This document shows positions 19,796 to 54,356 of a stretch of 64,000 nucleotides of DNA, piece by piece. Made by a program: the position numbers and the translations under genes. The stretch comes from Psammoneis japonica (taxonomy: Eukaryota). The stretch lies in assembly GCA_008632985.1 (NCBI GenBank), contig QPGO01000010.1, positions 434,001 through 498,000 on the forward strand, in the 5' to 3' direction. The notes beneath the pieces are model-generated. The model was not told where the DNA came from. It saw nothing but the letters and a program-made list of their open reading frames with translations, and made no database searches. Within the stretch, counting starts at the first letter, position 1, and each line of letters opens with the position of its first letter.

Positions 19796-22628
19796 TCGTT
19801 TTGTATCGCTTCACCGAGAGACATACTCTTCTTTTGCTTCGTTCTCAGTTCAGAGACGGCGAGTGTTCGTCTACAGTATTTGTTTATAAGTAAAATTAGG
19901 GCCTATGGTGTATCATAGCGGGCACGGGCAGCAGCGGCAGCATCGTCCCCAGCGCTTGAAAGTGCCCGGGTCGTGCGTCGTGCCCGGGTAAAACCGGTCT
20001 GTCCTCTACCTTTTGGCATCTGTGTAAAAGTCGATTTTGTTTCCAAAATCGATTGGTTTTTCACTATACAATGCTTCTTACGTCTTCTAACATTGTCAAT
20101 TGACATGTTCCCATGCCTGTATTTGCCAGGTTCACGGTTCTGAACGCCATTGCTACTGTCGCAAGAAGGGCCTTTTTTCGCTCCAAGAGGACAGACCGGT
20201 CGTCAGTAGAATTCTACGTGGCGATGTACCGAGAAATTTACACAGTTTTTTTTGCATCCGACGTCAAACGCTTCGCCATTATCTCTCGCATCGGCAGCAT
20301 GGTAAGTCCATAATACACACTCTTATCGAATCATATGGGCCCATAAGGTCTCATTTGTTGTTGTTTTGCCTTGTTACTCACATTGTGTATCCAGGTGTTT
20401 GTCACCAGTCGCACGGACACGGTGCAACTTCTAACTTCTTGTTGTCGTCGGTGGAGAAATCAACGAAAGGCTGCGGCGATATGTCATGCTGGACTCTAGT
20501 AAATACATAAGCTGGATATCCTACTGTGCAAGTTGGTGATGCAATGATTCTGTTAAAAAGAAAAAGGCAGGAATGCATGATACAGGTACATTGTTTGAAA
20601 TGTATGGTTTGCTGCTTGCGGGGTTGTGGGGGGTGCTAATGCATCTAAAAGTGTTTCATCGTCACACAGCATATCCTCCAAATTCTCTGGGCACTACCGT
20701 GTGACATTTTTAATGGGTTTCCTTTGCAGTTGGACATGTCATCAATTTTCTTCCGGTGGGAAAAGGCGATGGATTCGCTGGCATGCTCAATGCCGCCGTC
20801 TTCAAATGGTAAGTTCATTTTTTGAAAAGCCTTGTACGCCAGACGCACCAATGTCTTTGTCTTACATGTGTCAGGTTGTACTGCTTTTAGGACATACTCC
20901 TGGTCAAATAGGAACTCCCAAAAATGAGGGCTTACCTGGGTCTTGACGTCGAAAGAAAAATTCGGGTGGGGGTGGCGTGGATTCCGATCGCGGTATCATT
21001 GATGTCGTTGTTTCGTAAGAGACTAGGAAGGGTAGAATTGCGCCCAAAATTGCATTGACTTCAACATCAAAACCTGTCTTCTGTCTCTCCTTTCCCCTTT
21101 ACGAAATTGACAACCTTCGGGTGGTTTCTTTCCGAGCTTGCTTGGCAACCAGATCACGGGTGCGTGCTGCTGTTTTGGTCACAGTCTTTCGTTGACGCGA
21201 CGATCGAAGAGGATACACCATGGTGGGCTGGATGTGGCGGTTGCGTTGACGCAACGAACGACGAGGACACACCATGCATGGGGCTTGATGCAGCGGTTGC
21301 AGCGAGCAATAGGGTTTGTTGGCTTGTCGGAGGTACAGTACAGCATAATTTTGAATTTGAAATGGACAAAGTTAAAAACATATGATAACGTAGATAATTA
21401 ATGATCAAAAATCTGTGTAAATCTCAAACCGTGGATTTTTTTTAGAAAATGACGATGTGCCGTCTTTGGCCCCCAATTGTGCCGTGATGTAACGCTCTTT
21501 TATCCCACTGTTTTCACAAGGATCTCTGTTGACCTTCTGACCGATGCTAGTAGATAGGGTTTGCATGTGAAACAACGGGAAGCCACTGTTAGAGTGGTTT
21601 TACACAGTTTGCTCTTGCAAGAGGACAGACCGGTCGGAAGAGGACAGACAGGTTTTTTGCTTGTACCGGGGGTAGATTGGGTGGATCACGAACGTGAATG
21701 GAATGGAAAATGGCGGGAAAACCTTCAACCTTCAACCGAACCGCGAGCTCAAGGCGCCGCTCAGAACGCGAAGCCGCGATCTCATTTCTGCGTCAGGATT
21801 TGTTTTTCCGATTGCACAACATGTGCACGACCGGACGACTGCCGGATGTTGCAAGTCCAACAAGAAACAAGCGGAAGGGAACACAACATTCCAAACCAGC
21901 AAAGGAGACATTAAAGATTCGAGAATGTCAACCCAAGGGGAAAAATTGCAAGATCGCCGTCTCCTCCTTCCCCATCGTTTTGCCATTGAAGATGCTTCTC
22001 AGGACTCTCCTTGTTGTGAGCCTGCTTGCCAGTGGCGATGCGCAAGAGACAACACTTCGCAGATCAGATCCTCATCAGCCTGCATCGAATCGTTGCAGCA
22101 AGTCAGAGAGGTTGCAACGACTCAAGAATCACTTCAGTGCTCCTCACCATCGAGAGGTCTTGGCTCTCCTTGACAAGTGTCATCAACAAGATCCCGTCCC
22201 AGCAGACTGTGGCGGATGTCATCCCTGTGAGCAATGCTGCAGGCTTGACAACAATCCAAAGTTGGGACCGGCGCAAGATGCAGAACATGGCAGCAGGGAT
22301 GAGATGGCTCCCATTCGAATCCGGTTCGTCACGGAAATCCTTGAAGAGCAGCCAGGTGCAACAAGCGATGAAGCTGATGTTGCAAAAGGGGATGCAATTG
22401 TGAATGAGGTGCTTCCCACAATGCCACAGGAATGGTCCTCGCATCTGTCTGTGTTTCCTGCTGTCGGCCGACTGGCCGTGAACAATGAGACGTGTCTCGG
22501 AAATTGCGCAAAACGCAAAACTCGACTCATTGCAGCCGTTCTTGGAGACTGGCATTGATGATGCGGACATCGCAGTCATTGCACAGGGATCTGTTTGCAA
22601 CGAAGGCTTGCCAGCCTTTGCCGGTCCA

Positions 22629-22904
22629 TGACAGAAATTGAAGGCAAATGGCAAGAATTCAAACAATGACTCCTTGCTGCTGTTCAAATGGCAGATGAGT
22701 CTCTGCTCAGAGACCATCACAGGAGCCGAAAGACGTGCAAGTCGGCACAATCGGGCTGCTGTTGTTATTCTTGTGAGCCTTGTGGCTCGAAAGCAAACTG
22801 CATCGCGCGCAAACGCGCGGAACTAAAGCACACAAAACTGTGCACGGCAAACTAAACAGCACGCGACATTTCGCGTGCACCTAAATCCTGTTCAAATCCT
22901 GTCA
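22629..22904 (-). repeat. 3' LTR (276 bp)
   Basis: TGACAGAAATT...AAATCCTGTCA; direct repeat of 26137-26412 with short terminal inverted repeats. Confidence 0.92.
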
Positions 22905-23289
22905 CTCCCCAGTTTGCTTGAGGAGTCACAGAAACAGATTCGACTTCGGATTGACCAAAGAACTTTGGAGTCAAAGCACCAAAACATGAGGAGACAAGAA
23001 AGGATCAAGATCCGAGAGCAACGTTGCATTTTCCAAGTGGGTCATCTTGAGATGAGCTGCGTCTCCCCAATTGCAGATGCCGTTGTGTTTTTCAAAGCTC
23101 AAGGCACACTTGGGATCTTGTGGGATTCCACATCCGCGCTTGCAATGGAAGGAGCAAAGCTTGGTCTGGTTGACAATGTTGAACGGTGGGGCAACATTGC
23201 AGGCGGCATGGCGTTTGCATGACTCGGGGAACAGAGCAAGCATCAGTTCAAAGGCACAAGTGGTGGTCTTGTGTTCCACCAATCCGACT

Positions 23290-24338
23290 GCATCTCCTGA
23301 GAGACTGATCCAATTGGAGAAACGAGTCTCAAGGTGCAAGCCTTCGGGGATCGGATTGGAGCAAGACATCTTGTGGTGCAAGGCTGCAGATGTCTGATTG
23401 GGGCAACCAGTCCCGTGCTGCAAGACTTCTGGGATCCAAAAGGATTTGCCAGTGTTGTGACACGAGTCTTCGGGGATCCAATCAGGAGGCCAAGTCTTGA
23501 GGTGCGAGACTTGGGGGATCCAATCAGGAGGCCGAGTCTCGTGGCACAAGACTTGAGGGATCCAATCCGGAGGCCGAGTCTTGAGGCATGAGACGTGGAG
23601 GATCCAATTGGGGGGCCCGGTCTTGAGGCACGAGACGTGGAGAGTCCAGTTGGGAGGCCTGGTCTCAAGGCACGAGACTTGGGGCATCCGATCAGGGGGC
23701 CCAGTCTCGATGTACGACACTTGGGGCATCCAATCAGGAGGCCCAGTCTCGAGGCACGAGACTTGAGGCATCCAATCAGGAGGCCTGGTCTCGAGGTGCG
23801 AGACTTGGGACATCCAATCAGGAGACCTGGTCTCGAGGTACGAGACTTGGGGCATCCAATCAGGAGGCCCAGTCTCGAGGTACGAGACTTGCGGCATCCA
23901 ATCAGGACGCCCAGTCTCGAGGTACGAGACTTGGGGCATCCAATCAGGAGGCCTGGTCTCGAGGTACGAAACTTGGGGCATCCAATCAGGAGGCCCAGTC
24001 TCGAGGTACGAGACTTGAGGCATCCAATCAGGAGGCCCAGTCTCGAGGTACGAGACTTGAGGCATCCAATCAGGAGACCTGGTCTCGAGGTACGAGACTT
24101 GGGGCATCCAATCAGGAGGCCCAGTCTCGAGGTACGAGACTTGGGGCATCCAATCAGGAGGCCTGGTCTCGAGGTACGAGACTTGGGGCATCCAATCAGG
24201 AGGCCTGGTCTCGAGGTACGAGACTTGAGGCATCCAATCAGGAGGCCTGGTCTCGAGGCACGAGACTTGAGGCATCCAATCAGGAGGCCTGGTCTCGAGG
24301 TACGAGACTTGAGGCATCCAATCAGGAGGCCTGGTCTC
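23290..24338 (-). repeat. 42-bp tandem array inside the LTR element (about 21 clear plus about 4 degenerate units)
   Basis: Unit GAGGCCTGGTCTCGAGGTACGAGACTTGGGGCATCCAATCAG; reads ETRPPDWMPQVSYL in frame with the gag/pol remnant. Confidence 0.92.
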
Positions 24339-26136
24339 ATGGTGCGATGCTTGGAGGATCCGAAGACAACAAAGCTGCTTGGATGTCCTGAACTCCCCAT
24401 CTGATGAACCGGTTGAACTGTTGTGAACAGATTCAATGACGGGAAAAGGAGGCTCCCCATCAGGAGACACGAGAAGCAAGTTGTCACCTCCATCAATTCC
24501 CAAACGAAGACTGTGAAGGGTGACAGCGACAGAAGTCGACACGTGGAGGTTGGCAGCACGTGGTTTGCAGGGTGCAAAGACTGCAGCTTTGGAAGCCATG
24601 GGTGGAGTGTCCCAACTGGTCTCGAAGTGCGGGCCTGTGCAAGGGCTGCAATCCTGCACTGGGCCGAGGTTGCTTGCAGGCGGGTTGGTCAAGACATGCG
24701 GGGTGCGACTGACACCACTTCTAGGAGACACCTGAGTGGCGGCACAGTGCAAGGCTGGTGTCAAAATGGCACTGGGTTCATCTGGTTTGGATGGCAAGGG
24801 ACTCGGCACAGGTGCGGAGGGTGCTGCGCCAGTGGCTAGAGAGGTCAAGCAGTCCGGACCAAGGCGGCAGTTGCGAAATTCCTCGGGTGTGAGCAACTGG
24901 GGTTCATTGGTCACATCATCACCGTTGCAAACTTTGACAAAGCAGAAGCTGATCAAAGCTGCTAGGAGGTTTCTGTGGGTCTGTGGCAAAGGCACTACAT
25001 TGGCCCGTCTCTGTAAGTGAGGGCGTCAATTTGGGTGGGTAAGAACGTGAACAATTCCTCGCACGATTCAATCCCGTTGATGGACAGGGCAGAACGAAGA
25101 GGGCTGTCATCGTCTTGATTGAGCACAGTGCCTAGAATGTGTTTGAAGCTTTCGGTTTGTTGCTGTCACGTGAGAACCATGACGGAGGACGGTGCAGTGG
25201 AAACAAAAGACAGGAACCAATCTAGAGCGCGATCTTGACTCGGAGTTTTGACTTGGAACTTGGCTTGAAAAAGACGTGACTTGAGCTGGACTTGACTTGA
25301 AATCTTGGACTGTCTTAAAATCAGAAGTCGCCGGGTTGTGCCATCCCGTTCGTTGTCAAGTGCTAAACTTCCTGTCCGGTCCGTAGAGTTGTGCCGGCAC
25401 GTTCGAACCCGCAGCCAGTGGTGCTTTGGGTTGCTTGCGAGCGGAGTGGCGGGTTGCAAACCCCTGCAGGCAAGCTGACCAGAGGTGGACAAGACCCCCG
25501 AACCGTTCTTATTTTGTGTCGGTTGGATTTCCCGATCAGGCTGGCCAGTTGACGCAGGTGTCAGGCGCTGTGGACGAACGAACAAACGCGGGAAAGCACC
25601 CTCGCCCCAACGCAGGCTGCAATCATGGCCACTTGCTCTCACAGTCATCCTCGTGGACCTGGTGGAACTGCAGAGCACCAGCAGTCCGGGGTAGATCAGG
25701 TGCAATGGACTCGGTGTGCTTGTAGAGTGGCAGCAAAACCGCAGTCCGAAGAGTGGGCACAGGTTCTTGGCCGTGAAGACATGCACACATGTGCATGTCT
25801 TCAGCGATGCAGATCCTTGAACATGTGGGGTTCTTGACTGTTAACTGATGAATGGGTGCATCAAGGGATGAGGATCAAGGATGGACTTGGATGTGACCGT
25901 TGAATGCATGTCTTCAGTGATCAAAGGCAGTGTGATCAATCCAGACATCCAGCGGTGAGGAGACTTGACGGTGACGTTAACTTCCTGCCGATGCCCTGGT
26001 GTTGAATGCGCGTAGACTTGCCGATGTATGTAGAACATATACGGAGGTCCACGCAGAATTGAAATGGCGTCGTTGGTAAATCAACGACGACGATGGCGGT
26101 TGCTCAATGGGTTGACAATGAGCAAGACTGTCAATC

Positions 26137-26412
26137 TGACAGAAATTGAAGGCAAATGGCAAGAATTCAAACAATGACTCCTTGCTGCTGTCTAAACAGC
26201 AGATGAGTCTCCACTCAGAGACCGTTGCAGGAGCCGAAAGACGTGCAAGTCGGTGTGATCGGGCCACTGTCATTGTTCTTGTGAGCCTTTTGGCTCGAAA
26301 GCAAACTACATCGCGCGCGAACGCGCGGAACTGAAGCACACAAAACTGTGCGCGGTAAACTAAACAGCGCGCAACATTTCGCGCGCACCCAAATCCTGTT
26401 CAAATCCTGTCA
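26137..26412 (-). repeat. 5' LTR (276 bp)
   Basis: Direct repeat of 22629-22904, followed by TSD GTCCA. Confidence 0.92.
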
Positions 26413-28049
26413 GTCCATGCAACCGTGATCAGTTCGACCGACCTGCATTTGGAATTGTGACTTTCTGTTTCAATGCGGAATTCGATCCGACCGACGACGA
26501 TGATGTCTTTGACCTCTCCCTCATGGCCCTGCATGAAATTGGCCATGCGCTGGGCTTTCTGAGTCAATTGACTCCCCACTTCCGGCAGCGTCACATCCCG
26601 GACTGTGCCTTGTGTGAATGGAGTTGATCAAACCATTCCATTCGCTGGTGAAAACACACTCAAGGCATTTGTTATGAGCCCCGGTGCATCTGGGCAAGAG
26701 CGCATGCACTGCGAAGTCGTGACGCCAAAAGTTGGGGAAGTTGCTCGCAATCTGTTTGACTGTCAGTCGCTGGATGGAGCTCGTCTTGAAAACTGACCAA
26801 CATCATCCGATTGTGCCAGCAACCATTGGGATGAACACTTCTTTTTCTCCGAAATCATGTCAGCCATTCTGAACCAAGCTGGTGACGGACAGGGGGTCGT
26901 GCCATCACCCCTCACCCTGGCCTTTTTTGAAGACAGCGGATGGCATTTGGCATCCCATGAAAATGCAGGACTGGCGGGCTGTGGCCTTGGGCTCGGTTGT
27001 GACTTCGTGGAGGGTGATTGCATCGTGAACAATCAAGTGCCAGAATGTGGTCAGGGCATCTTCTGCAGTGCTGCGCACAATCCCAGTCCCGACGTTGCAA
27101 ATCCGCAGCACTGCGATCCAACTCACATGAGCTTCTGCCACTGTGATCTAATTGACCCAACATTTCTTGCTGCGAACAGAACTGCGAATGATCGCACTTC
27201 ACATTTTTCGAATCCCAATCTGGTCACTCTGGCTGACACACAGCACAACTTTTGTCCTTTGCCATTGCTCCATGCACCATTGGTTCCAGACCAACCTGGC
27301 AGCTTGGACCTGGTGGACTGCACAGATGAAATGACAGACACTGGAAACTCGGTTTTTGAGGACGAAACGCATGGAGCCAACAGCAGGTGTGTGAGTGCAG
27401 CCATTCCAGGCTTTGTTGCACGCCCAGCCTGTCTTCCCATTGCATGCGACAGCGAGAACTTTCAGGTTGTTGTGGGTGGCAGGGCGTGTGAGTTTGATGG
27501 TCAGATGCACACAATCTCCCCGCTCCCGGCATGCCAAGGGGTCCCAGAGAGTGCATTTGTTTGTCCACGGTTGTCTCTGGTTTGTCCCAATCTGTTTGGC
27601 TGTCCTGGTGCATGTTCGGGTTGTGGAGTTTGCAACTGCAGTGTCACCCCACCGAGATGTGAGTGCTTTAGCTCAGCCGATGTCGACAGCAGCTCTCCTC
27701 TTTGCGCGGCGGCGGCAGTGCAGCTTCCCACTCCTCCAACTGAATCGCCTTCAACGTCTGGAAGCCGTGCTGCGGCTGCACTCTCTTTGCTGAATGCAGT
27801 CGTTGTTTGTTTCCTTTTCAATGCATGGGTTTGGTGATTGGCGAAACAGATCTTACAAGACACCAGCCGCCGGACGGCCTGTTGCAGCAGAGGTCATTTT
27901 TGTGCATCTTCACCAGTTTCTTCATTGTCGCGAATGTACAGCCAGTTCAACCTTTTTAAAAGATGTCAAACAGATCATCACTCGTGCCGTGACTTTCATT
28001 GAAATGACCGTTTCAAGCTTTCGTTGGCAATTGACAAGCAAATTGCTGT

Positions 28050-28834
28050 AAAAGGAATGCCACAAGGTGCCACATCACGATGAAATCACATCACCTCGCC
28101 CAGGGACATGAGAGATGTTTTTCCTAGACAAGGAGTCAAGAGCCCAGAAAGAAATGAGTGGCACGGCAGAAGGGTGCATCAAAGAAGCTGCTGCTGGAGC
28201 AGATGAGCAGAAGGGGCACGTGACGCATGGCGCACAGGGCATTTTGTAGAGGGGGTGGTGGAAGTGCCCATGCAAAAGGCAGAGAGGAAGTGAAAAGCAT
28301 GAGAGGAGAGGAGAGGTGTGGTGTTGAAACTGAGAGTCTGGTGAGTTTCCCACTGAGAGGGGGGGGAGGAGTGGTGGGCACTGCTCAAGCGATCACTGGC
28401 AAGTTGATTCTGGGCAAAGTCAGCAGAGGGAAGGAGAGAGGAGGGAGAAGTGAGCACATGGAGGAAGGCAGAGCAGGAAGTGCCAGAGTCTTGCAAGGCA
28501 GACAGCAATGGCCATGGATGCTGGGGCTGAGAGCTGTGGCCCCACCCTGCCACCAGGGCAAAGGGGCCGGGTGGAAGCACATGACGAATTGAGCCACCAG
28601 CTGGAGCAGTGCACCAGCTCGCCACACATGGTGCATGCCATGCACAATGCACACACCAAGAAAATGGTGGGCACCACACAGCAACAGCATGCAAACATGT
28701 GGAGAAGAGTGTTTGCTTTGCTCGTGGACCTTTCAAGCAACAAAGCACAAGCAGGTCAGCTGGGCTGGCCTCCAGTGTTGCTGGAAGAGAAAAGGCAGGT
28801 TTTTTGAGGCCACAGCAGCCAAAAACCAGCAGCT

Positions 28835-28865
<31 letters not shown>

Positions 28866-29845
28866 TGAACAAACAATCAAAATTGGTGAAGCCAATTTTC
28901 CGTCAAATGTGACAAACAAATGACACAAGCAGCTGAGGCAGAGCCACACTCAATCAGACATTTGTGTCCAACTGTTTCAGTGCAAATGGCAGGCACAACA
29001 AGGTTGACCAAAGTCAGGAGAATGGGGCTTTCAAGAGCAAATGAATGAATGAACAAATGAATGAATGAATTGAGTGAGTGAATGAATGAATGAATGAATG
29101 AATGAATGAACAAAATTGTGCAGCCAATGTTCCATGAAATGTGACAAACAAATCTGAGGCAGCTGAGGCAGAGCTGCTGCTCAGATGCTCATGTCCAAGC
29201 TGCCGCCACAGCAAATGGCGGGCACAATGGCATTGGCCAAAATCAGGGTTGAGACTTTTGCAGCAGCACACGTGCAAAGAGGAGGGCTTGCTTTGCACAT
29301 GGCCCTTCTTGCAGAGGCAAAGCAGGTCAGCTGGGCTGGTCTCAGGCATTGCTGGAAGAGAAAAAGCAGGCTTTCTGAGGCTTCTGCTGGACAGCAGCCA
29401 AGAACCAGCAGCTTTTCTCTTTCTGATGTGCTCCAGCTTCAGGTGGGACCTTGAGCTGCTGAATTGTGACATGAAGAGTTTTTTGGATCGTGCAGCATGT
29501 CGCGCACGCAGGTGGCTGCACAGTGTGACAATCTGTGAAATTGTCCCATGCTTCCAGTTTTGCAAAGCCAAAGGCTTTCTATTTTCAACATCCACAAGAA
29601 TGAAAATGTGCTGGGCACATTCTTTGATGTTTGCAGAACACACCCGGGTGAACTGTCGATGATGCACTTCAAGTGTGAAGGAGGAGATGTGTTCATAAAA
29701 ATCACCTCTTTTTCTGTTGGCAATCATTCACATTTTCATCGCTTGACAAATTTGCTGTGGAGCTTGCACATGGAATTCCACGGGCCTGATGTCACATGGA
29801 GCCCCGCCCAGGGCTGGAACCTGTCTTCTTTCAAACAACGACGAA

Positions 29846-29894
<49 letters not shown>

Positions 29895-30200
29895 GCACAC
29901 ACACGCACACACCTCCTGTTGGCAACCTGGAAAATTTGTGGCATTGGCAAGCTGGCCAGAGAAGCACACAAATGAAAGTGTTTTTTGTTTCTTTTGCCCC
30001 GGCGAGCAATGAGCAATGATGGCCAGACCTCACCAAAGACATTTTTTTCATGCAAGCATGAGCTTTTTCTTCTTGTTTTGTGTTGGCTCACCACAAAACA
30101 AAAAGGAAACACTGCATTGTTTGCGACCTTGACTTCTCCCACAAAAGCAACCCATTGCTTCATTTGTTTCTCACTGCTCGTGAATCAGGAACGTGAATTG
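28050..30200. repeat. TpA-depleted degenerate repeat region with internal duplications and microsatellites
   Basis: 28750-28810 resembles 29320-29380, and 28880-28945 resembles 29110-29175. (CT)n near 28840 and 29850; (TGAA)n at 29041-29110; very few TA. Confidence 0.65.
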
Positions 30201-30622
30201 AAAAAAGGCGGAATCGCTCGCGGCGACCCACGGTCATCGCACTTGGGTCAGCGTGTCGCGTTCGGTGTTTGCACGTGAATCACGAACGGGAATGGAAAAT
30301 GGCGGGAAATGGGAGGTCTGACGAAATGACGATCCGCGAATAACCGACCGCGAATGCCAAACCCAAATGCCAATCACACATCTGCGTGTTCGCACTTTGC
30401 ACGATTGGTTGTCGAGATGTTGGAGGCCTTCTGTATCCTGTATCTTGCATGCAATCCAACAAGAACAAGCGGAAGGGGACACATCCATACCAAGGAAAGG
30501 AGTTGATACATAGAGTCATCTAATTGCAGCACACGAGATCTCTCGTCGTACCGCAGCGTTTCCTGAATTCAAACAGCTATTGCAAGATCGCTGTCTCCTC
30601 CTTTCCCGTTTTGACTGTGACG

Positions 30623-33073
30623 ATGGAAATCTGGCTCCTGTATGTTCTCAGGGCTCTCCTCTTTCTGAGCCTCTTTGCCAGGAACGATGCACTTGAGAAA
30701 CTCCTTCGCAAAAAAGATCCTCATCAGTCGGTGTCCGTGTCGAAACGTCGCAGCAAGGCGGAGAGGTTACAACGACTCAGGAATCACGTTACCGCTCCCT
30801 ACCATCCGGAGGTCCGGGTTCTCCTTGACCAGTATCATCAACAAGATCCCATCCCGGTAGACTATGGTGGACGACATCCCTTTGAACGACGCCGTGGGCT
30901 TGACGATAATTCAAGGCTGGGTCCCGTGCAAGATGTAGAATACGGCAACAGAGATGAGATGGCGCCCATTCGAATCCGGTTTGTCACGGAAATCCTTGAA
31001 GAGCAGCTAGGTGCAGCAACCGATGAAGCCAACGTTGCAAAAGGGGATGCGATTTTGAATAAGGTACTTCCTGCCATACAGGAGGAATGGTCCTCACACT
31101 TGTCTGTATTCCAAGCATCTGGTGCACTCGCAGTCAACAGTGAGACGTGTCTTGGAAATTACGAAAGAATCCCGCTATTACAGTCTTTCTTAGAAACTGG
31201 TATTAGCGATGCAGACATTGCACTTATTGCACAAGCAACAGTCTGCGACCAAGGCCTGTTGGCCTTCGCCGGTCCCTGTAACCGTGATCAGTTCGACCGA
31301 CCTACCTTTGGAATTGTCTCGTTCTGTACTAATGCGGACTTCGACCCGACGGATGACGATGATGTATTTGATCTCTCGCTTGTGGCCATCCATGAAATTG
31401 CCCATGCATTAGGTTTTCTCAGTCAGTTGACTCCCTACTTCCGAGATGCGACGGGGGAGCCGCTGACGCCGCGAACGGCAAGTGGCGGCGTTGCATCCCG
31501 GACGGTGCCTTGTGTGAATGGAACTGATCAAAACATCCCATTCGCCAATGAAAATACGCTGAAGGCGTTCATTACGACCCCCGGTATATCTGGCAAGGAG
31601 CGCCTTCATTACGAAGTCGTGACTCCGAAAGTGAGGGCAGTCGCTCGGAATTTGTTCGATTGTCAGTCGCTGAGTGGGGCTCGTTTTGAAAACCGACCAA
31701 CGCTTCCTGATTGCGCCGGAAACCATTGGGATGAACGTTTCTTTTACTCGGAACTCCTCTCGCCCCTTCTAAACCCATCTGGAGATGGTCAGGGTGCCGT
31801 GTTGTCACCTCTGACCCTCGCTTTTTTTGAAGACAGTGGATGGTATCGTGCGTCTTACGAAAACGTTGGACTGGCAGGGTATGGCCTTGGACTTGGTTGT
31901 GACTTTGTGGAGAGGGACTGCATCGTGAATGACCAAGTGCCAGAGTATGGTGAAGGCATCTTCTGTAGTACTCCGTACAATCCAAATCCGGACGCCGCAA
32001 ATCCGCAGTACTGCGACGCAACGCACACGAGCTTTCGTTACTGTGGTCTGATCGATCGAAGATTTCTAAATAACTTTACTCCGGATGATCCAATCTTGTA
32101 TTTTTCGGATCCTAATCTGATTACTGTGGCCAACAGACAGTATGACTTTTGTCCTTTGCCATTGCTCGACGATTCATTTGTGCCGGATCAACTTGGCAGC
32201 TTGGACTTGGTAGACTGCACAGATGAAATGACCGACGCTGGAAATTCTGTTTTTGAAGACGAAACGTATGGAGCCAATAGCAGGTGCGTGAATACAGCCA
32301 TTCCTGGCTTTGCTGCACGCCCAGCCTGTCTTCCTATCGTGTGCGACAGCGAGAACTCTCAAGTTATTGTGGGTGGCCGGGTATGTGAGTTTGATGGCCA
32401 GATGCACACAATCTCCCTGCTCCCTGCTTTCCAAGGAGTTCCAGAGAGTACATTTGTTTGTCCACGGTTGTCGCTGGTTTGTCCCGATCTGTTTGGCTGT
32501 CCTGGTGCGTGCTCGGGTCGTGGAGTGTGTAATTACAGTGTCACTCCACCGAGATGCGAGTGCTTCAACTCAGCCGATATCGACAGTAGCTCTCCTCTTT
32601 GCGCGGCAGCAGCAGTGCAGCTTCCCACCCCTCCAAGTGATCAGCCTTCGACATCTGGAAGCAGTACCCCTACTGCACAACCTTCGACATCTGGAAGCAG
32701 CACCCCAACTGAACAGCCTTCGACATCTGCGAATAATACTGCGGGAAGCAGCACACCAACTGAGCAGCCTTCGACATCTGGAAGCAGCCCCCCAACGGCA
32801 CAACCTTCGACAACCGTAAGCAGTACCCCGACTGATCGGCCTTCGACGTCTGGAAGCAGCACCCCAACTGAACGGCCTTCGACGTCTGCGAGTAGTACTA
32901 CCCCGACTGGCCCGCCTACAACGCCTGGAAGCAGCACTCCGACGGAAGCGTTCACATCACCTAGAAGCAGTGCTCCTACGGAATCACCCACCCCGTCTGG
33001 AAGCCGTGCTGTTGCTGCACTCTCTTTGAACACAGTTGTCTTTTTGTTTCTCGTCAATATATGGGTTCGATGA
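30623..33073 (+). CDS. Leishmanolysin/GP63-like zinc metalloprotease (peptidase M8), probably GPI-anchored
   Basis: Signal peptide (MEIWLLYVLRALLFLSLFA), HEIAHALG zincin motif, HWDERFF..ELL, LTLAFFEDSGWY, EGF-like CPGACSGRGVC, S/T-rich 12-aa repeats and a hydrophobic C-terminal tail. Confidence 0.93.
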   Translation: MEIWLLYVLRALLFLSLFARNDALEKLLRKKDPHQSVSVSKRRSKAERLQRLRNHVTAPYHPEVRVLLDQYHQQDPIPVDYGGRHPFERRRGLDDNSRLGPVQDVEYGNRDEMAPIRIRFVTEILEEQLGAATDEANVAKGDAILNKVLPAIQEEWSSHLSVFQASGALAVNSETCLGNYERIPLLQSFLETGISDADIALIAQATVCDQGLLAFAGPCNRDQFDRPTFGIVSFCTNADFDPTDDDDVFDLSLVAIHEIAHALGFLSQLTPYFRDATGEPLTPRTASGGVASRTVPCVNGTDQNIPFANENTLKAFITTPGISGKERLHYEVVTPKVRAVARNLFDCQSLSGARFENRPTLPDCAGNHWDERFFYSELLSPLLNPSGDGQGAVLSPLTLAFFEDSGWYRASYENVGLAGYGLGLGCDFVERDCIVNDQVPEYGEGIFCSTPYNPNPDAANPQYCDATHTSFRYCGLIDRRFLNNFTPDDPILYFSDPNLITVANRQYDFCPLPLLDDSFVPDQLGSLDLVDCTDEMTDAGNSVFEDETYGANSRCVNTAIPGFAARPACLPIVCDSENSQVIVGGRVCEFDGQMHTISLLPAFQGVPESTFVCPRLSLVCPDLFGCPGACSGRGVCNYSVTPPRCECFNSADIDSSSPLCAAAAVQLPTPPSDQPSTSGSSTPTAQPSTSGSSTPTEQPSTSANNTAGSSTPTEQPSTSGSSPPTAQPSTTVSSTPTDRPSTSGSSTPTERPSTSASSTTPTGPPTTPGSSTPTEAFTSPRSSAPTESPTPSGSRAVAALSLNTVVFLFLVNIWVR

Positions 33074-38800: not shown

Positions 38801-39073
38801 GCACAAACTTTCCTCTAAGAAGTCAGAAAATATAATATCATATGCTGCCTCCATGGAAACCGAGTCGGTAGTCTACTTTATCGTATCTCTCTCTCTTTCT
38901 CTCCGTCTATCTCGCCTGGACCGTAATTTCTTACCACACTCGGGCGTGCTCACAATGCCGTTAGCACAGGGACACTCACGACATGTGGTGAGTCACCAAC
39001 GGCATGTTCTTTTGCCTTGCATCATGGTTTCGTGTTTTGCCCACCGTGTTCTTTTGTCAGAAGATGATGAACT

Positions 39074-39207
39074 GAGAAGCACACCAGTTTTGTCGGGACT
39101 TTCTGGTGATGAGACGACAGCTGTCTCACACGTCTTTAACAATCTCTCACATGGGTGTCTGTTCTGAAATTCACAAGCATTGACGACCATGTGGTGACTG
39201 GCAAATC
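39074..39207 (+). pseudogene. Truncated duplicate of the 5' UTR/start of the iGluR-like gene at 48532
   Basis: GAGAAGCAC..AGTTTTG...GATGAGAC..AGCTGTCTC...CTGTTCTGAAATTCACAA.CATTGA aligns to 48500-48618. Similarity stops where the TA-depleted TE block starts. Confidence 0.75.
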
Positions 39208-39449
39208 GAGCAGCATTCTTGAAAATCAGAGGGGGGGGGGCAAATTTTGGGTGTCTTGCCCACTCATGGTTGCATTGCCATCAGAGTCCATGTGCTGGGG
39301 GTTCCAACACAGGTTTCCAAAAAATGTTTCTTGCAGGCAGTCTCGATTTGCAATGGTTTGTCATCCCTCGACATTTAATTTTCACCTCACACAGAACACC
39401 CCTGCTTTGCACAGGTGCTGGGAACATGGAAGTTCAACACAACAAAAAA

Positions 39450-40950
39450 ACTGGTGAGAAAAATGCTTGATGCCAACAGCACCTTTGCTCTGAACAAACA
39501 ACACAAAGAAATTGCACAAAACAGTGTGGAGTGATTGCTGAATGCACACAGCTGCCCTGTTGCAGTGCTGCATCTCTTGCTGCTGGGTCTGTCTTTTGAG
39601 AAAGTCATTGGCAAGACTGTCACACAGAAGAGTTCACAAAGAGAAGTCCTTGATGATTCATGTGCCTTGAGGTGCACCTTTACAATCAGTGAGCACAACG
39701 TGCCTGTGCTTGTTTCTCAGCTTCTCAAACTCTTCTTTCTTTTCCAAGACACACCAAGACAGTCTTCTGGACACCATGAATGATTTTTTCTGAGGATGCT
39801 GGGGTTGCTTGACACTTCAAGTGACTTTCAATCTGTCTTTGGCATGCAGTTGCCTGGCTTGCATTGCACCTGAATGAAACAGGACAAAGCATCAGGCAGT
39901 CACACCCTGCCAGCTTCCTTTGCGTGGTGCTCCATTTGACTCACATGCCGTCCTTCACCACCTTCCCTGCCACATCCCACACCCCTTTAAAGTGGCATTT
40001 CTGTGCAAACCAGCAAGCAACTACAACCCTGTTGACTGTGCTTGCAAGTCTTGCCATTCTCAAAAAGTTTGGGTTGCACTTGCACTGTGGCCCACAGCTG
40101 TCCATCCACACTGCAATGCACTTCAGGTTGATGCGTTGCTTCTTGAAATCACACTTGCAGTGTTGGACAGAGACAAGGCATGCATTGTAGAAAGCATGGT
40201 CACTCTTCTCACCTTTTGATGTTGTTTTGCCAAAGAAGTGCCACAAACGTCACATTCTTTGATTCACCATTTCTTGTTTGCACTGTTGTGCTTCACTGCA
40301 ATTGTTCTTGCAGAGTGCGGGACAACAAAGATGCAAAGGACAGCGTGGACATCAAATTGTTGGTGAGGTGCACTTGCAGATCACATGCATTGGAGAAGTT
40401 GGTAAAAATCAGCAGCTCCTTGCTGGCAAAGGCATGGGTGTCAATGTGTCTCATGAAATTGATGAGTTCAGTCTCACAGCAGTGCTTTCCACACTCTTTC
40501 AGCTGCATCAGCAGTCACTCTGCAGCTGTTTTTGCCAGAAGCTCAGTGTCCATCAGTTTAATCTGTGCACTCTGTTCACCTTTCACATTGGCCCCCCATC
40601 TTTCAGTGCCAGCAGCATTCCTTTGCAGGGACATTGATGTTGCACTCAGTGAGTGCTGCACACTCTTGCAGCTTCTTCACAGTTTGTTGACTCCACAATT
40701 CTGACAGCCCCTGTGTGTGCATTTCCAAGGGATTGGCTTTGGTGGGTGGCCTCCAACCTCAGTGCAAAGCATTGGCTGTTCCTCTGCCAGATGGCACACA
40801 GCTTTAACCATGGACTTGCAGCCTCCATTTTCTGGCAGTGAAAAAATGTTCTCCATGCCAGATCCATCATCTTCATCCTCCCTCATTTGTGTGTGCGCAA
40901 GTTGAAAGCACAGTTCTTTGCTTTTTTACAAGCAACTCAGTTGCTCTTCA
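39450..40950 (-). mobile_element. Decayed DDD transposase, Sola2-like
   Basis: Fragments on the minus strand, reading Tyr back in for Cys/His: KC...GCQNCG, ELLIFT(D)FSNA(Y)DL, SDHAF(Y), IAVWMDSCGPQ(Y)KC..NF, WFAQK(Y)HFKGVWDVAGKVVK. This resembles the Sola2 pattern DFAENY / SDGCA.QYKN..NF / FFAT.HGKG..DG.GG.VK. Confidence 0.6.
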
Positions 40951-41309
40951 ATGCTTTGTTCAGCACACTCGTGCACTTTTCTAGAGCCCAGTCTTTGGCA
41001 AATCCACACAGGAATGCTCAGACAGATCCTGAGCACACAGGCAAATGCAACCTCAGAGTTGTTCCTTGCCTGTCATGCTGCACAGCACTGGGTGACAGAG
41101 CTGAAAAAGTGTGCAAAACCAAAACAATTGAGCTGGACATGATTGGTCAAACCAACCAGGCAAGGCAGCAAGTGCAGCAACAGGCAGCTGGGTTGCTGTC
41201 CTCAAGGTCAGCCAAGGGATGGCAAGCAACCACCAGCACATCACAACGAGCACCAAGTGCTCCAAATCCAAAAAAGCAACGGCAGCAAGAGCCTCCAAGC
41301 CCACCCCAA

Positions 41310-41460
41310 AACCAGTTGAACCCAAGTGCCTTGTCTGCAACATGACTGTGTCAAATGCATTGAAGTGTGATTTGTGCACTGCGTGCACACATGCAAGCTG
41401 CTTGTTGGCAGATGAAAACAATGAGAGATTTTGTTGGGATTGCAGCAACGACTTGCAATG
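41310..41460 (+). pseudogene. PHD-finger-like remnant inside the TE block
   Basis: KCLVC...LKCDLC...THASCL...FCWDC matches C4HC3 spacing; followed by TGA stops; lies in TA-depleted DNA. Confidence 0.45.
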
Positions 41461-42059
41461 ACTTGAAATTGCTGCAAACAGTTTGTGGAGCGCAACTGTC
41501 ACGATCACAAAAGCCAGGATCATTTTGGTCTGTGTGAGAGTTGGTGGGAAGTTGTGGTTTTGGTGTGCAAGAAAGATGGGTGCAACCGCAAATGGAAAAA
41601 GAATGACAAGAAAAAAGCATGGTTGTGCAACGGAAAAAACCAAGGGTGTTGCTGTGGGATGGTTTGTTGTGTGGGAGGATGCTTTGAGCAGGCTGTGCCA
41701 TTGGAAGGATGTGGTCACAAGCAAGGCGCCGCACTGCAACTGAGGTCAATGCACCAGCTTGTTTGGTTGGTGTGGAACAGAATTTTGTTCAGGCAGTGCA
41801 GGATTTCTGTCAAATGCAACAGCACTCTTTGTTGCAGTTAGAAATGAAAGCAGAAACTGTGGCGCAACAGTTGGAATTTGCTGCAGCAGGTGACTTGAGC
41901 ATCTGTCGTTCCCTGTGTTGGGAATGATCCTCCACATTGACAACAAGTTGATGCTGGAAAGGCAACATGCTGCAGCTGGGGTTGTGGAGTGGCTGTTTTG
42001 ATGATTGAGAAATGAAGTGTGATGGCATCAGCATGCTGCAATTGGGGATGTGGAGCAGC

Positions 42060-43385
42060 TGCACAAAGGGTGCAAGGTGGCCAAGTGCACAAAATTGCAA
42101 AGGGTGCAAAATGGCCAAGGGCACAAAATCTTTGAGAGCACAAAATCATGAAGGGCACAAAATCATGAAGGGCACAAAATGATGGCTGATGGGAAAAATC
42201 ACAAAGGGCACAAAAAAGCAAAGGGCAAAAAATGGGAAAGGGTGCAAAATCACAAAGGGCGCAAGGTGGCCAAGGGTGCAAAATCACAAAGGGCACAAAA
42301 TGGCCATGAGCACAAAGTTGCAAAGGACCCAAAATGGCTGAGGGCACAAAATCACAAAGGGTGCAAAATGGCTGAGGACAAAAGATGCAAAATGGCTGAG
42401 AGGGCGCAAAATCATGAAGGGCACAAAATGATGGCTGAGGGCACAAAATGGCCAAGGGCACAAAGTGGCTGAGGGCAAAAATGGGAAAGGGCACAAATTC
42501 ATGAAGGGTGCCAAATGGGAAAAGGGCAAAAAATCACAAAGGGTGCAAGGCAGCCAAGGGCACAAAATCACAAAGGGTGCAAAATGGCCAAGGGCACAAA
42601 ATTGTTGAGGGCACAAAATGACTGAGGGCACAAAAAATCACAAAGGGTGCAAAATGATGGCTGAGGGCACAAACCCACAAAGGGCACAAAATGGCCAGCA
42701 CAAATTCATGAAGGGCGCTGAGTGGGAAAGAGCACAAAATCACAAAGGGCACAAGGTGGTGGCCAAGGGCGCAAAATCATTGAGAGCACAAAATGGGAAA
42801 AGGCACCAAATCATGAAGGGCACAAAAAGACGGCTGAGGGCACACAATTGCAAAGGGCACAAAATGGCAGAGGGCACAAAATGGGAATGGGCACAAAATC
42901 ACAAAGGCCACAAGGTTGCAAAAGGCACAAAATCTCAAAGGGTGCAAAACAACCAAGAGCACAAAATGGGAAAGGGCACAAAATTGCAAAGCACACAAAA
43001 TCACAAATGGCACAAAATGGCCAAGGGCACAAAAGAAGCATGTTGAGGGCACACAATGGCTGAGGGCACAAAATCATGAAGGGCACAAAATGATGGCTGA
43101 GGGCATGAAACCAGAAAGGGCACAAAGTGGCTGAGGGCACAAAATCACAAAGGGCACAAGGCTGCAAAGGGCACAAAATCACAAAGGGCGCAAGGGCACA
43201 AAATCTTTGAGGGCACAAAATGGCTGAGGGAGCAAAATCACAAAGGGTGCAAAATGATGGATGAGGGCTGAGGGCACAAAATCACAAAGGGCACAAAACG
43301 GTCAAGGGCACAAAGTGGCCAAGGGCTCAAATTGGGAAAGGGCACAAAATTGCAAAGGGCACAAAATGGGAAAGGGTGCAAGGCA
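42060..43385. repeat. Degenerate array of short GGGCACAAAAT/GGGTGCAAAAT motifs (probable subterminal repeats)
   Basis: Dozens of AGGG(CA/TG/CG)CAAAAT motifs with variable 5-15-bp linkers, ending near AGAGTGCACCCTC (about 43413). Confidence 0.85.
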
Positions 43386-43414
43386 GAAAATCAGAAGATC
43401 AGAGTGCACCCTCT

Positions 43415-46400
43415 TGACCAGACAGCCTGGTCTGGTGTGATGTCAGGAGCCACTCCATTCTTGACCACATTCTTGGCATCTGCAGGTCGCTTTTGCTTTT
43501 TGGATGCACCCATGCTTGGCGACATCAAAGAAACATTTCTCAAACTCTGCTGGTCCATGTTGAGCAGCTTTGGAAGTTTGTTGAGCAGACCTGCACTGGG
43601 TGCTTGTCCAAAGAGCCCTCGCCACCTTGGAACATTTTCCAGTGCACCACTCTCCAGCACATTGTGTTTGGAGCCAGTCTGGGGTTGGATGAAGTGAGCA
43701 CTTGTGGAGGCCCAAGAAGTGCATGGGATGAAGCAGCTTCAAGCTGTGGTGCCCTCCTCTGCAGCAATCATTGCTGCACCTCAACTGTGCCCCCTGCTGC
43801 TCCTTCTGTTCAATGAACTTACCAGGCCATTGTGGTGTGTCACAGCCATGACTCATTTGGGCCATGTTGCTTGAGCAAAAATTCTGGTGGAGAGCCATGT
43901 TGTTGCACCCTTTGGCATTGCCAGTTGTTTCATGACATGTGCTTGAAAGCAAGTGTGGGAGCCAACCAAGACACAGCATGTTTGCCAAAAGATCCATTCT
44001 TTCTCTTGCAATGTTGCAGTGCATTTCTGCAAACATCTCTCTCAGTGCATGCTGTGGCTCCTGGTTTCCACTCAGGAGCACTTTGCTCTTGTTGCTTGTC
44101 TTCAGAAGGGTGTGCAGCCACTCCAAGTGAAGAGGCCACAGGCTGTGGTTTTGGCAAGACTTGTTGCCAAGATTGCCCAAGGTGACAACTGTGGGCTGGG
44201 CCTGCAGGTGGCCTGTGTTGTTGTCACAAAGAGCAGAGCAACAAATGCAGTGAAACCAGAAGGAGGCAATCTCATTTTGCCCAGCTCTCTCAGAAATGTT
44301 CCTTTGGAAGGCACCACTCCACTCGCTTCACTTCTGCCATCATTCAGTGTTCAAAGAATTGCAAACCTGCTCATTTGTGTTGAGATGTTGTTTTTCATTG
44401 TGCAACCATTGGCAAGACATCACAAATTCAGGGCCCCAAAACATCCCTCCTGATGCAATGAACCAATGAGAAACAGCACACATGCATGGGAGGGAATTTA
44501 ACCAGGTCCAGCATGTGCAGCATGGGGTGGATGGGCTCAGGGCCAACATGACCCATGTGACTCTTTTTGCCTTGTTCATTCATCTCAAGGCACAGTGGAT
44601 CATGAGAAATGTGACTGGCAGCCATGCTTGTTTGCTGTTTTTGGAGTTCCAGTTTGGCTGCAAGAAGCCTTGAAAGACAGCAAGGCAGGTGGTGCTTTTT
44701 CCCCATCACGGCCAACTCTTCCTCCACATGTGGGGCAACTTCTTAGTTGATTTCATTTCCTGAGTGGCCTGGGAGTTCCAAATCTGCACTTCAGTTGCCA
44801 GCTGGTCAAAGAAGAACATGTCAACGGCTGGTTGACAACTCAGAATTGTTCCAGCACAACCACAGCTGGGCCTGCACCCAATGCTCTGGCTGTTCCTGAA
44901 AAAAATTAGAGTGGGCAATTCCTGGCAAAACAAGAGAGGTGCACAGGGAGGCTGAACAAGACACCAGCAGTGGAAAGAACAGTGGGGAGGGGGCAACATC
45001 TTTGACAAAGAAGAAAGTGAAGGGTGGTCAGGTGTGTGTGTTTGTTGGTTGGAGCTCATCTTTTTTCAGCAGTGCTGTCCATGTCCTGACATGTCAGCAT
45101 CAAGCCACTCCACAGCTCAACCTCATGGTGGTCAATGAGAGCCAAACAAGATTGTGGGAAATGATGTTGCTTGCATCATGTCTGGCAAGCTCTGATTTGA
45201 CTGTGTCATTCTCCAAGCACTGCCAGAGATCTGGCTGGTGACTTGCCAACCACTGCCTTTGCTTGGCCAGTGCTGCCCCCCTGCATGTTGCCTCATTTGA
45301 AAGCCAGGCAAACAACAGGAGCATCAACCAGTGCTGCACACTCTCTTGTCAAAGACAGCGCCCTGGTCACAAACACTGCTCCTGCCCTGGGCTCCCACCA
45401 AATCTGCTGCTCACATGAGGATCCAAGTGATTTTTGTGCCTCTGGTGTGCCAGCAAGTTGGTCACAGCATCACCTGCCTCTCGATGGCCAACAGCTTTTT
45501 TTTTTTTTTGACAAAATGCTCTCAGATGCCTGCACACCCAGGTGCAGAGAAGCTTGTCACTCTGCAAAAATTGTGTGCACATGGCACACAGCAGCAGCGT
45601 GGCAAAACAGATTGAACACCCAAGAATCTTGAGACAGATTGCTCCTTTGCACAGAAAATGACAGAAAAAAAACAAGAAAGTGGCATGACACACACCAGAT
45701 TCAGAGAGCAAAAGTTGTTTTTGGCAGCATTTTGAAATTGTGACTGAAGTGACTGCCATGCAGTGTGCCAAGAGCCCACACCAGTTTGTGGCTGTCACTG
45801 TCCTCAGCAAGCTCTGACATTTGTGCACTTGGAGATGGCAGGCACTGCCAAAATGCATCAGGCAAGACAGCTCTCAGCCAGAGTGCACAAAGTGTTGAGA
45901 AAACTTTGTGTGAGACACTTGGCTGCAAGTGCCACACAGGCTGCCAATTTTTGGATGCTCTTCACAGCTCTGCCATCATCACAAAATGCTCCCACATGAT
46001 TTGGGCATCTTGGGCAGCATTTCTTCCTTCTCTTTGCCATGAAGCCCTGTTCAATCTGCACCCTGCTTCTCCAATGGATCCAACCCAACTGCCTGTGAAA
46101 GCCCCATTCCCCTGCAAAGAATCTCACAGGGTTGTGCTCACTGCCACCAAAGCTGGGAAGAAGCAGCTGCTTTGGCAAGCGAAACAAGCTTGCAAGAAGA
46201 GCTGTGCAGCCTTGTCAATGAAAACAACCTGTGGTGCAAACCAACTGCAAAGAGCCAAAATCTGTCATGTCTCCATGCAGATGTTCAAGATCCTGGAAAT
46301 GGGCATCCCAAAGGTTCAAAAAGATGAACTCAAGTTTTTGTGCCACCACTCAGATTGATGTTGGTCGTCAAACAACCAGGCCATCACAAAGCAGACCAGT

Positions 46401-47790: not shown

Positions 47791-47793
47791 CTC

Positions 47794-47912
<119 letters not shown>

Positions 47913-54009: not shown

Positions 54010-54356
54010 TCTTGCAACTATACGCGATTCGAAAATGATAAAAGGTCAATAAGGAAGAGTCGGGGTGTTGACGAGACTGCCTATTCAAATTTTGCAAGGT
54101 CTAGAATGGATTATCTTCGTGAGTAGAGTAGCAGACAGTACTTCGTAAGATAGAGAGCGCGTCTCAAAGTGAATGAGAGCGTGGTGTACTCTTGCAACTA
54201 TACGCGATTCGAAAATGATAAAAGGTCAATAAGGAAGAGTCGGGGTGTTGACGAGACTGCCTATTCAAATTTTGCAAGGTCTAGAATGGATTATCTTCGT
54301 GGGTAGAGTAGCAGACAGTACTTCGTAAGATAGAGAGCGCGTCTCAAGTGAATGAG
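54010..54356. repeat. Near-perfect 180-bp tandem duplication
   Basis: TCTTGCAACTATACGCGATTCG...GCGCGTCTCAA at 54010 and at 54190. Confidence 0.95.

Follow-up and report, generated by a model that had tools for sequence, protein, structure and literature searches.

Loss of TpA and CpG dinucleotides in bounded chromosomal domains, one holding a long terminal repeat retrotransposon copy, in the diatom Psammoneis japonica

Hypermutation of nuclear DNA at the dinucleotide TpA is known from the chlorarachniophyte Bigelowiella natans, and a signature that resembles it was found here in a diatom. The DNA analysed is a 64,000-nucleotide stretch of the Psammoneis japonica genome (GenBank assembly GCA_008632985.1, contig QPGO01000010.1, positions 434,001 to 498,000), referred to below as the window, in which a 3.8-kb long terminal repeat (LTR) retrotransposon copy interrupts one of two tandem leishmanolysin-like genes. 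According to the preprint on B. natans, 231 of the 302 nuclear point mutations in its mutation-accumulation lines fell in two integrated viral regions (10.64898/2026.01.13.699255). All but one of these de novo mutations (230 of 231) were A>G or T>C, the GC-biased ones all lay on TpA, and the rate in the viral regions was about 6e-7 against 3.5e-10 elsewhere (10.64898/2026.01.13.699255). The genome of that species contains 124 clusters of TpA-poor and CpA+TpG-rich windows, a cluster being at least three 1-kb windows with a TpA rho of 0.43 or less and a CpA+TpG rho of 1.52 or more, and its TpA-poor genes are enriched in reverse-transcriptase and transposase domains (10.64898/2026.01.13.699255). 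Mettrop et al. propose DNA adenine deamination, with an ADAT2-like candidate enzyme, as a defence in B. natans; for ADAR, a preference for U before the edited A is given (10.64898/2026.01.13.699255). The words 'CpG', 'LTR' and 'retrotransposon' do not occur in the available text of the preprint (10.64898/2026.01.13.699255). As regards diatoms, their transposable elements (TEs) are CG-methylated via DNMT5a, and many of them encode the RID-like DNMT4, whose function is unknown (Hoguin et al. 2023, PMC9998398).

Three domains of the window, listed in Table 1, have lost TpA and CpG and gained TG and CA. The ratio of observed to expected counts (O/E) in the normal DNA that makes up the rest of the window was 0.63 for TpA, 0.98 for CpG, 1.13 for TG and 1.15 for CA. 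The gene flanks in domain 1 showed values of 0.02-0.08, 0.64-0.70, 1.55-1.57 and 1.45-1.64, respectively, the left gene flank (21912-22628) having a TpA O/E of 0.02, while the corresponding values were 0.21, 0.70, 1.34 and 1.43 for the whole element and 0.02, 0.35, 1.61 and 1.67 for the part of domain 1 from 28.2 to 30.3 kb. A total of 42 TpA remain in the element. Domain 2 contained 18 TpA where 617 were expected (O/E 0.03) and 65 CpG where 543 were expected (O/E 0.12), with TG at 1.89 (1065 observed) and CA at 1.85 (1104 observed), and the values for domain 3 were 0.02 for TpA, 0.20 for CpG, 1.87 for TG and 1.93 for CA. Gaps free of TpA reach 1981 bp, and the domain edges are sharp within about 250 bp and lie close to neighbouring intact genes, those at 30.3, 39.0, 48.3 and 62.45 kb coinciding with gene promoters. 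The TpA and CpG loss is thus a property of kilobase domains and is not specific to the LTRs. When the cut-offs used for B. natans were applied, they were passed by every one of the 9 windows in 39001-48000 and by all 3 in 27001-30000, with the reservation that the rho formula may differ slightly from our O/E.

The direction of the change can be read from the gene that the element entered. The sequences flanking the element on both sides belong to one gene, a tandem paralog of the intact copy downstream (window self-BLAST). The pentanucleotide GTCCA, which stands on both sides of the element, occurs once at the homologous point of the intact paralog, the interrupted copy is exactly 5 nt longer there (global alignment), and the BLAST alignments left and right of the element overlap in the intact paralog by the length of this target-site duplication. 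The duplication together with the empty site in the paralog therefore indicates one LTR-retrotransposon insertion event. The family to which this 3.8-kb element belongs is very abundant. Besides the insertion, the interrupted copy is damaged by indels of 41, 7, 4 and 1 nt and by one in-frame stop (CGA>TGA).

The two paralogs were compared over 2094 aligned columns (79% identity) with the intact copy as the reference. The 65 TpA of the intact copy appear in the interrupted copy as TG (27), CA (30), TA (1), CG (1) or other dinucleotides (6), and its 123 CpG as CG (51), TG (27), CA (21) or others (24). In the reverse direction, the interrupted copy has TA at only 2 of the 308 TG/CA sites of the intact one, and its A>G and T>C changes (161) outnumber C>T and G>A (122). 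As the intact copy has the TpA level that is normal for the window, TpA was lost in the interrupted copy. The sequence-only reading, an earlier reading made from the letters of the window without database searches, had named TA as the derived state among the outcomes that would speak against it; with 57 of the 65 TpA now TG or CA, TA is instead the state that is disappearing. Host-derived single-copy DNA has been mutated in place, and consequently neither editing of RNA or cDNA before integration nor a foreign origin of the composition accounts for it. TpA was retained at 1 of 65 sites in the gene flanks and at 7 of 12 in the LTRs (Fisher P = 2e-6), so decay in the flanks began well before the insertion.

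Table 1. Coordinates of the features discussed, in positions of the window.
Feature	Position	Strand	Size	Details
Decay domain 1	21912-30341		~8.4 kb	Contains the element and the interrupted paralog; edges sharp within ~250 bp
Interrupted leishmanolysin-like paralog, left part (pseudogene)	21945-22628	+		BLASTN 75% to 30579-31278 (from 21945-22630); tblastn 64-68%
Target-site duplication GTCCA, left copy	22624-22628			
Left LTR	22629-22904		276 bp	TGACAG...CTGTCA; direct-repeat search and pairwise alignment; edges are loose ends of family contigs
Element internal region	22905-26136			TpA O/E 0.20, CpG O/E 0.65
42-bp tandem array in the element	23449-24338			~21 units
Right LTR	26137-26412		276 bp	Direct-repeat search and pairwise alignment
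Target-site duplication GTCCA, right copy	26413-26417			
Interrupted paralog, right part	26413-27840	+		BLASTN 79% to 31272-32678 (from 26413-27781); Peptidase_M8 match; frameshifting indels
Intact leishmanolysin-like paralog	30524-33073	+		849-aa open frame; Peptidase_M8 E = 2.5e-35; normal composition; unmutated reference
Decay domain 2	39000-48300			
Decay domain 3	62450-64000			Runs off the window end

The LTR pair, which aligns at 90% identity without indels and has TG...CA ends with short terminal inverted repeats, differs at 28 of 276 positions, and 27 of the differences are transitions (pairwise alignment). The single transversion is G/T at LTR position 154. Seven double sites with TG in one LTR and CA in the other, hereafter flips (LTR positions 61-62, 76-77, 90-91, 118-119, 120-121, 129-130 and 135-136), account for 14 differences; six sites are CG in one LTR and CA or TG in the other (88, 183, 216, 233, 237 and 248), six are TA in one and TG or CA in the other (57, 139, 172, 197, 220 and 254), and one further transition, at position 56, lies outside these three classes. 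A pyrimidine-purine (YpR) dinucleotide was present in at least one LTR at 27 of the 28 differing positions, compared with 144 of 276 positions overall (binomial P = 3e-7), and the differences show no strand bias. The LTR coordinates and the counts of seven flips, six CG sites and one transversion in the sequence-only reading proved essentially exact, and its third class, TA against TG or CA, was also found, although with six sites and not about five. That reading further held that the LTRs were mutated in situ after integration at a rate far above background, and this is supported by the single insertion event, by the same signature in the flanks and by the fact that only 2 of the 28 differences are anything other than YpR-step transitions. 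Its exclusion of editing at the reverse-transcription stage, of the APOBEC or ADAR type, likewise holds, since the LTRs differ, strand bias is absent and the changes reach into the flanking host DNA.

Ancestral states were taken from other copies of the LTR, namely 2193 contigs from one sequencing run aligned on 22400-23280; the run contains 74% of the words sampled from a 10-kb stretch, for which no RNA run was listed. The summed contig depth was 1e5-6.5e5 over the LTR and 66 on the unique flank; the depth figure is not a copy number, and the LTR looks to be present in thousands of copy-equivalents. Both LTR edges, 22629 and 22904, are marked by a depth step and by loose contig ends. Variation in the family consists of transitions at 31 of 32 variable places. 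Among the positions that differ between our two LTRs, 17 of 28 are variable in the family, and at the other 11 the left-LTR letter makes up at least 95% of the depth. With the family majority taken as the ancestor, 9 derived positions fall to the left LTR: CpG decay accounts for six of them, TpA-to-CpA for 22685, TpA-to-TpG for 22800 and a C>T change for the last. The right LTR has 19, of which 12 belong to the six double flips; the others comprise three decays of TpA, two of CpG, one change from CpA to TpA, and the transversion. TA is the family majority at 22685, 22767, 22825 and 22882, where one LTR has TG or CA, and at 22800 it reaches only 63%; CG is the majority at 8 positions where one LTR has TG or CA. 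The left LTR also carries a private T at 22684, whose residual depth of about 81, against 66 on the unique flank, is close to that of a single copy and thus places it in read-derived contigs.

At the flips, the family comparison that the sequence-only reading had called for speaks for TpA as the source of most. The flip at 76-77 is CG in about 95% of the family depth and is hence a CpG that decayed both ways, and it is the only one of the seven flip sites where CG is the majority. The marginal frequencies force the existence of TA-bearing family copies at four of the six non-CpG flips (in at least 17%, 8%, 18% and 6%) and of CG-bearing copies at none. The opposite outcome, with CG as the source of every TG/CA site and TA as a product of the process, is contradicted by the CG majority at only 1 of 7 flips, and the TA-bearing copies at no fewer than four of the six other sites point the same way. 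The process is directional, with TA and CG being lost and TG/CA accumulating, which refines the earlier picture of interconversion among the four dinucleotides.

The number of flips also distinguishes between the two sources. A model with CpG decay only, based on 15 CG/CG and six CG-vs-TG/CA sites and an independent decay probability of 0.17 per LTR, gives 0.30 visible flips where seven were seen (P of at least seven = 3e-8), and one rate fitted to all three classes is rejected (chi-square 14.6, P = 1e-4). When a separate TpA class is modelled from one TA/TA and five to six TA-vs-TG/CA sites, it comprises 12-16 sites with a decay probability of 0.71-0.75, and 3.1-4.5 visible flips are expected together with an equal number of invisible ones, with which the six non-CpG flips agree. 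The exposure, calculated as -ln(retention), was 1.39 for TpA and 0.18 for CpG in the LTRs and 4.17 and 0.88, respectively, in the gene flanks. Per site, TpA thus decays roughly 5-8 times faster than CpG, and its decay exceeds that of other positions by a factor on the order of 100. Since background-type differences make up only 2 of the 28, the naive divergence of 10% overstates the age of the element about 14-fold, as the sequence-only reading had warned in general terms for LTR-divergence dating.

We consider it probable that a process limited to domains turns TpA into TpG or CpA in place, alongside a slower decay of CpG. On this account, decay would already have begun in the leishmanolysin-like gene of the tandem pair into which the element inserted. 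Within the domains, both palindromic pyrimidine-purine steps would be erased by transitions on both strands, through two changes: TpA to TpG/CpA (A:T to G:C) and CpG to TpG/CpA (G:C to A:T). TG and CA would thereby build up to about twice their expectation. The LTR pair could then serve as a time-stamped sample in which about eight differences would be CpG decays and at least five single TpA decays, and the six non-CpG flips would be former TpA that decayed in both LTRs, to TG in one and to CA in the other. The signature, its direction, the domain limits and the action on non-repeated host-derived DNA are direct observations. The CpG part is presumably the deamination of 5-methylcytosine in methylated silent chromatin, and the TpA part, by analogy, a targeted hypermutation of the B. 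natans kind, possibly by DNA adenine deamination.

Decay of 5-methylcytosine alone, under which all TG-vs-CA sites would be former CpG deaminated on opposite strands and the scarcity of TpA would be unrelated, is one alternative, and part of the data fits it: 8 of the 28 LTR differences are CpG-to-TpG/CpA changes from a CG family majority, the flip at 76-77 is of this origin, CpG is depleted in three of three domains, and diatom TEs are CG-methylated (PMC9998398). Strongly uneven CpG methylation could even rescue part of the flip count. We nevertheless regard it as very unlikely, because it predicts far too few flips and the single-rate fit fails, because the family has TA and not CG at four of the six other flip sites, and because the conversion of 57 of 65 TpA in the interrupted copy and the TpA O/E of 0.02-0.03 stay unexplained. 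In fungi, repeat-induced point mutation (RIP) changes C to T, prefers CpA and enriches TpA. A defence of this classical kind, acting on duplicated DNA and creating TpA as the derived state, might be suspected here since the affected sequences are repeated (the LTR family and the tandem gene duplicate), one site (22848) did change from CpA to TpA, and DNMT4, related to fungal RID, is encoded by many diatoms (PMC9998398). However, TpA is erased in the domains (O/E 0.02-0.21 against 0.63 outside), A>G and T>C exceed C>T and G>A in the interrupted copy, and the change is confined to one paralog, which makes such a defence hardly credible. The third reading of this group dispenses with in-place mutation altogether and takes the domains for foreign or compositionally distinct DNA, or for the product of ADAR- or APOBEC-like editing at the RNA or cDNA stage. 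Domains 2 and 3, which have no recognisable genes and no homologue in the window, would suit a foreign origin, but the depleted DNA of domain 1 is a copy of a host gene whose normal sister lies 2.6 kb away, and differences between the LTRs of one insertion arise after integration and show no strand bias. This reading is extremely improbable.

The observations that weigh against the proposed process concern mostly the LTRs. Positions 56-139 hold 18 of the 28 differences. In six of six non-CpG flips, the family-majority state stands in the left LTR and the flipped one in the right (two-sided P = 0.03), which is unexpected under independent TpA decay and would be compatible with changes in two steps, with a conversion tract or with subfamily structure. 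Position 22848 changed in the opposite direction, from CpA to TpA, although it is one site only. The family states are depth-weighted single-position marginals from one sample with haplotypes unresolved, possibly the sample from which the window itself was assembled, and with so many copies cross-talk during assembly or polishing is possible in the LTR interiors. The direction of change comes from one LTR pair and one paralog pair only, and what enzyme is at work, and whether TpA and CpG loss are connected, is purely a matter of inference. The clustering, the left-LTR majority and the extreme depth would suit an import of the LTR differences from other copies of the family, either by ectopic gene conversion or through cross-talk in assembly or polishing, so that the clock would be void while the family-wide bias would be real. 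We judge an import of this kind unlikely. Derived states occur in both LTRs within the patch, the left one differing at 56, 57, 76 and 88 from a family majority of at least 94%; several right-LTR states have less than 5% in the family, so that the donor would need to be rare and heavily decayed; the private left-LTR letter at 22684 stands at about single-copy depth; and the unique flanks show the same process without a possible donor. Clustering, left-majority flips, unresolved haplotypes and copy number therefore touch the LTR 'clock' and not the process that the unique flanks show. As to the chemistry, the signature could also come from a modified thymine at TpA (e.g., of the hydroxymethyl-uracil type) that mispairs with G and gives T-to-C, or from the deamination of N6-methyladenine at a methylated palindrome, parallel to 5-methylcytosine decay at CpG. 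TpA and CpG are both self-complementary and so suit a symmetric modification, which would explain the strand symmetry (27 TG against 30 CA in the paralog comparison, 1065 against 1104 in domain 2) and the co-location of the two decays. On the other side, the authors of the B. natans work prefer adenine deamination, as a proposal only (10.64898/2026.01.13.699255), and A-to-G on one strand looks the same in sequence alone as T-to-C on the other. We hold thymine or N6-methyladenine chemistry to be rather unlikely.

With regard to the LTRs, a compensatory RNA structure was considered as an explanation of the flips and is not supported, as the LTR folds no better than shuffled sequences (z -0.26 to -1.45) and no flip is paired with another. 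A 7-bp inverted repeat of the right LTR (CTGCTGT ... ACAGCAG, 26185-26204) owes its perfect match to the flip at 61-62, and no other flip has such an effect; the left-LTR counterpart (22677-22696) and 86% of the family depth have TG there, which would give G-U pairs in RNA. A templated change at a quasi-palindrome is conceivable for this flip alone. An exact 28-mer of the LTR retrieved 0 loci with other LTR copies in public metagenome contigs.

The element itself yielded no recognisable gag or pol, with 0 Pfam families in 5 of 5 internal open reading frames (ORFs) tested, and this 3.8-kb copy is non-autonomous or has no recognisable coding capacity left. A GGGGAG purine run adjoins the left LTR when the minus strand is read (sequence inspection), and from its position the element may have a minus orientation; inspection by eye revealed no tRNA-type primer-binding site next to the LTRs, and no dedicated search was run. 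Beyond the left LTR (22905-22951), the family contigs keep an LTR-like depth for about 46 bp and then continue with a uniform other sequence from 22951, and the element interior from about 22970 has 50- to 170-fold the unique depth. The copy is hence a member of a rarer variant and has its LTR in common with a much larger family. The 42-bp array shows the same dinucleotides among its 21 units: one column pair is TA in 12, CA in 7 and TG in 2, and another is mostly CA (9) or TG (9), with CG once. The TG/CA pattern partly recurs every three units, which suggests that the array was amplified as a 126-bp higher-order unit.

The origin of domain 2 was also investigated. The repeat search found no long repeats or termini in it, and a comparison with the rest of the window gave no homology even in a purine/pyrimidine alphabet, except for a 100-bp match. 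Just inside the left edge, 110 bp (39074-39183) are 74.5% like 48500-48599, the start of an ion-channel gene that begins just past the right edge; a decayed copy of this gene beside domain 2 was not found by tblastn. Domain 1 likewise opens with a copy of the gene that comes after it, and both domains may have started as tandem duplications. Pfam searches of 27 ORFs (23 in domain 2 and 4 in the element interior) gave no credible match, all four matches being below the cut-offs. The middle of domain 2 (42078-43376) is a degenerate 17-bp minisatellite of about 76 units with 62% matches and an A-rich plus strand (AT skew 0.57). Microsatellites stand where decay is strongest in domains 1 and 2, namely GT x57 near the right edge of domain 2 (47798-47911) and TC (28835-28865), AATG (29040-29110) and CT (29846-29891) in domain 1.

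Surviving TpA (n = 32, collected from 21912-22628, 26418-30341, 39000-48300 and 62450-63990) were in the context TTAA in 9 of 32 cases, compared with 4% of the 1880 TpA outside the domains (binomial 3e-6), and ATAN contexts were rare. The TTAA enrichment is a possible hint at a sequence preference of the process. Long open frames occur in several frames and on both strands of the decayed DNA, e.g., 22971-25025 and 23243-24688, both on the minus strand, and many in 39000-48300; one example is 684 aa long, and no such frame has a Pfam match. TAA and TAG cannot occur without TpA and only TGA stops are left, hence gene finders will over-call ORFs in the domains. Elsewhere in the window, a 180-bp unit, present 1.9 times with 98% identity (54010-54356), adjoins a gene for an NSF-like AAA ATPase (54394-56962, minus strand) whose two overlapping frames suggest an intron or a frameshift, and a 962-aa open frame running off the window start (2-2890), with PT repeats and DUF11/DUF7507 domains, is built on 108/216-bp tandem repeats (270-1267). 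The nearest protein clusters for two proteins of the window have Bacillariophyta as their commonest group. Of at least 120 relatives of the NSF-like ATPase, the three with an organism name are all from diatoms (Stephanodiscus, Attheya and Amphora, 63-79% identity), and the best hit reaches only 74% identity, so that the DNA comes from a diatom rather than from Bigelowiella.

Our full-text literature search yielded no paper that describes TpA decay or a mutation process like RIP in diatoms. TpA-specific DNA hypermutation has been described once before, in the 2026 preprint on the chlorarachniophyte, and the diatom signature would widen it to a second lineage. The case would also extend the phenomenon to the ecologically most important group of eukaryotic phytoplankton, and the signature is written in an LTR pair with a known starting state and in a host-gene copy with an untouched sister. 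If the proposed process is correct, its target is a chromosomal domain and not 'viral' sequence as such, and it is tied to CpG loss. For such genomes this means that LTR-divergence ages are inflated, that the vanishing of TAA and TAG stops from decayed DNA produces spurious long ORFs, and that the detection of repeats and pseudogenes needs transition-blind alignment. Since diatoms are genetically tractable, the process could be measured after the knock-out of candidate deaminases or methyltransferases. A bolder reading, which in our estimate falls somewhat short of being probable, is that diatoms possess an enzyme-driven DNA-editing defence targeted at chromatin domains. Adenine would be deaminated at TpA and, jointly or in parallel, cytosine at CpG, in both strands of silenced DNA of any origin or copy number, at rates about 100-fold (TpA) and tens-fold (CpG) above background; together with that of Bigelowiella it would be an old defence of the whole stramenopile-alveolate-rhizarian (SAR) assemblage, falsifying LTR dating and inflating ORFs.

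Among the systems with which this locus can be compared, the CpG decay of methylated TEs is alike in changing CpG to TpG or CpA on both strands in silent, repeat-rich DNA, and it covers 8 of the 28 LTR differences and the domain CpG O/E of 0.12-0.70; it leaves TpA untouched, however, and cannot give the flip count seen here. Fungal RIP shares the permanent, in-place, transition-only scrambling of repeated or invasive DNA and the spill-over into neighbours, and it would falsify LTR dating as well. It differs in that TpA is destroyed here and A:T-to-G:C changes dominate, and in that RIP strikes both duplicates whereas one paralog is untouched here. The editing of retroelement RNA or cDNA by ADAR or APOBEC resembles our case in its deaminase-type transitions, but it precedes integration and would be identical in both LTRs, strand-biased and absent from flanking host DNA, unlike the changes observed. 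The comparison with B. natans shows differences in host, a diatom (stramenopile) here and a chlorarachniophyte (rhizarian) there; in targets, an LTR retrotransposon, a host-gene pseudocopy and unrecognisable DNA against viral inserts; in degree, with a TpA O/E of 0.02-0.03 here and 0.45 in the region of nucleocytoplasmic large DNA virus (NCLDV) origin there; in the coupling of TpA loss with CpG loss, CpG being unmentioned in the available text of the preprint; and in evidence, which is comparative here and comes from mutation-accumulation lines there. The likeness to the giant-virus and virophage DNA of B. natans lies in the change of TpA to TpG or CpA on both strands, in the sharply bounded kilobase regions and in a rate orders of magnitude above the background.

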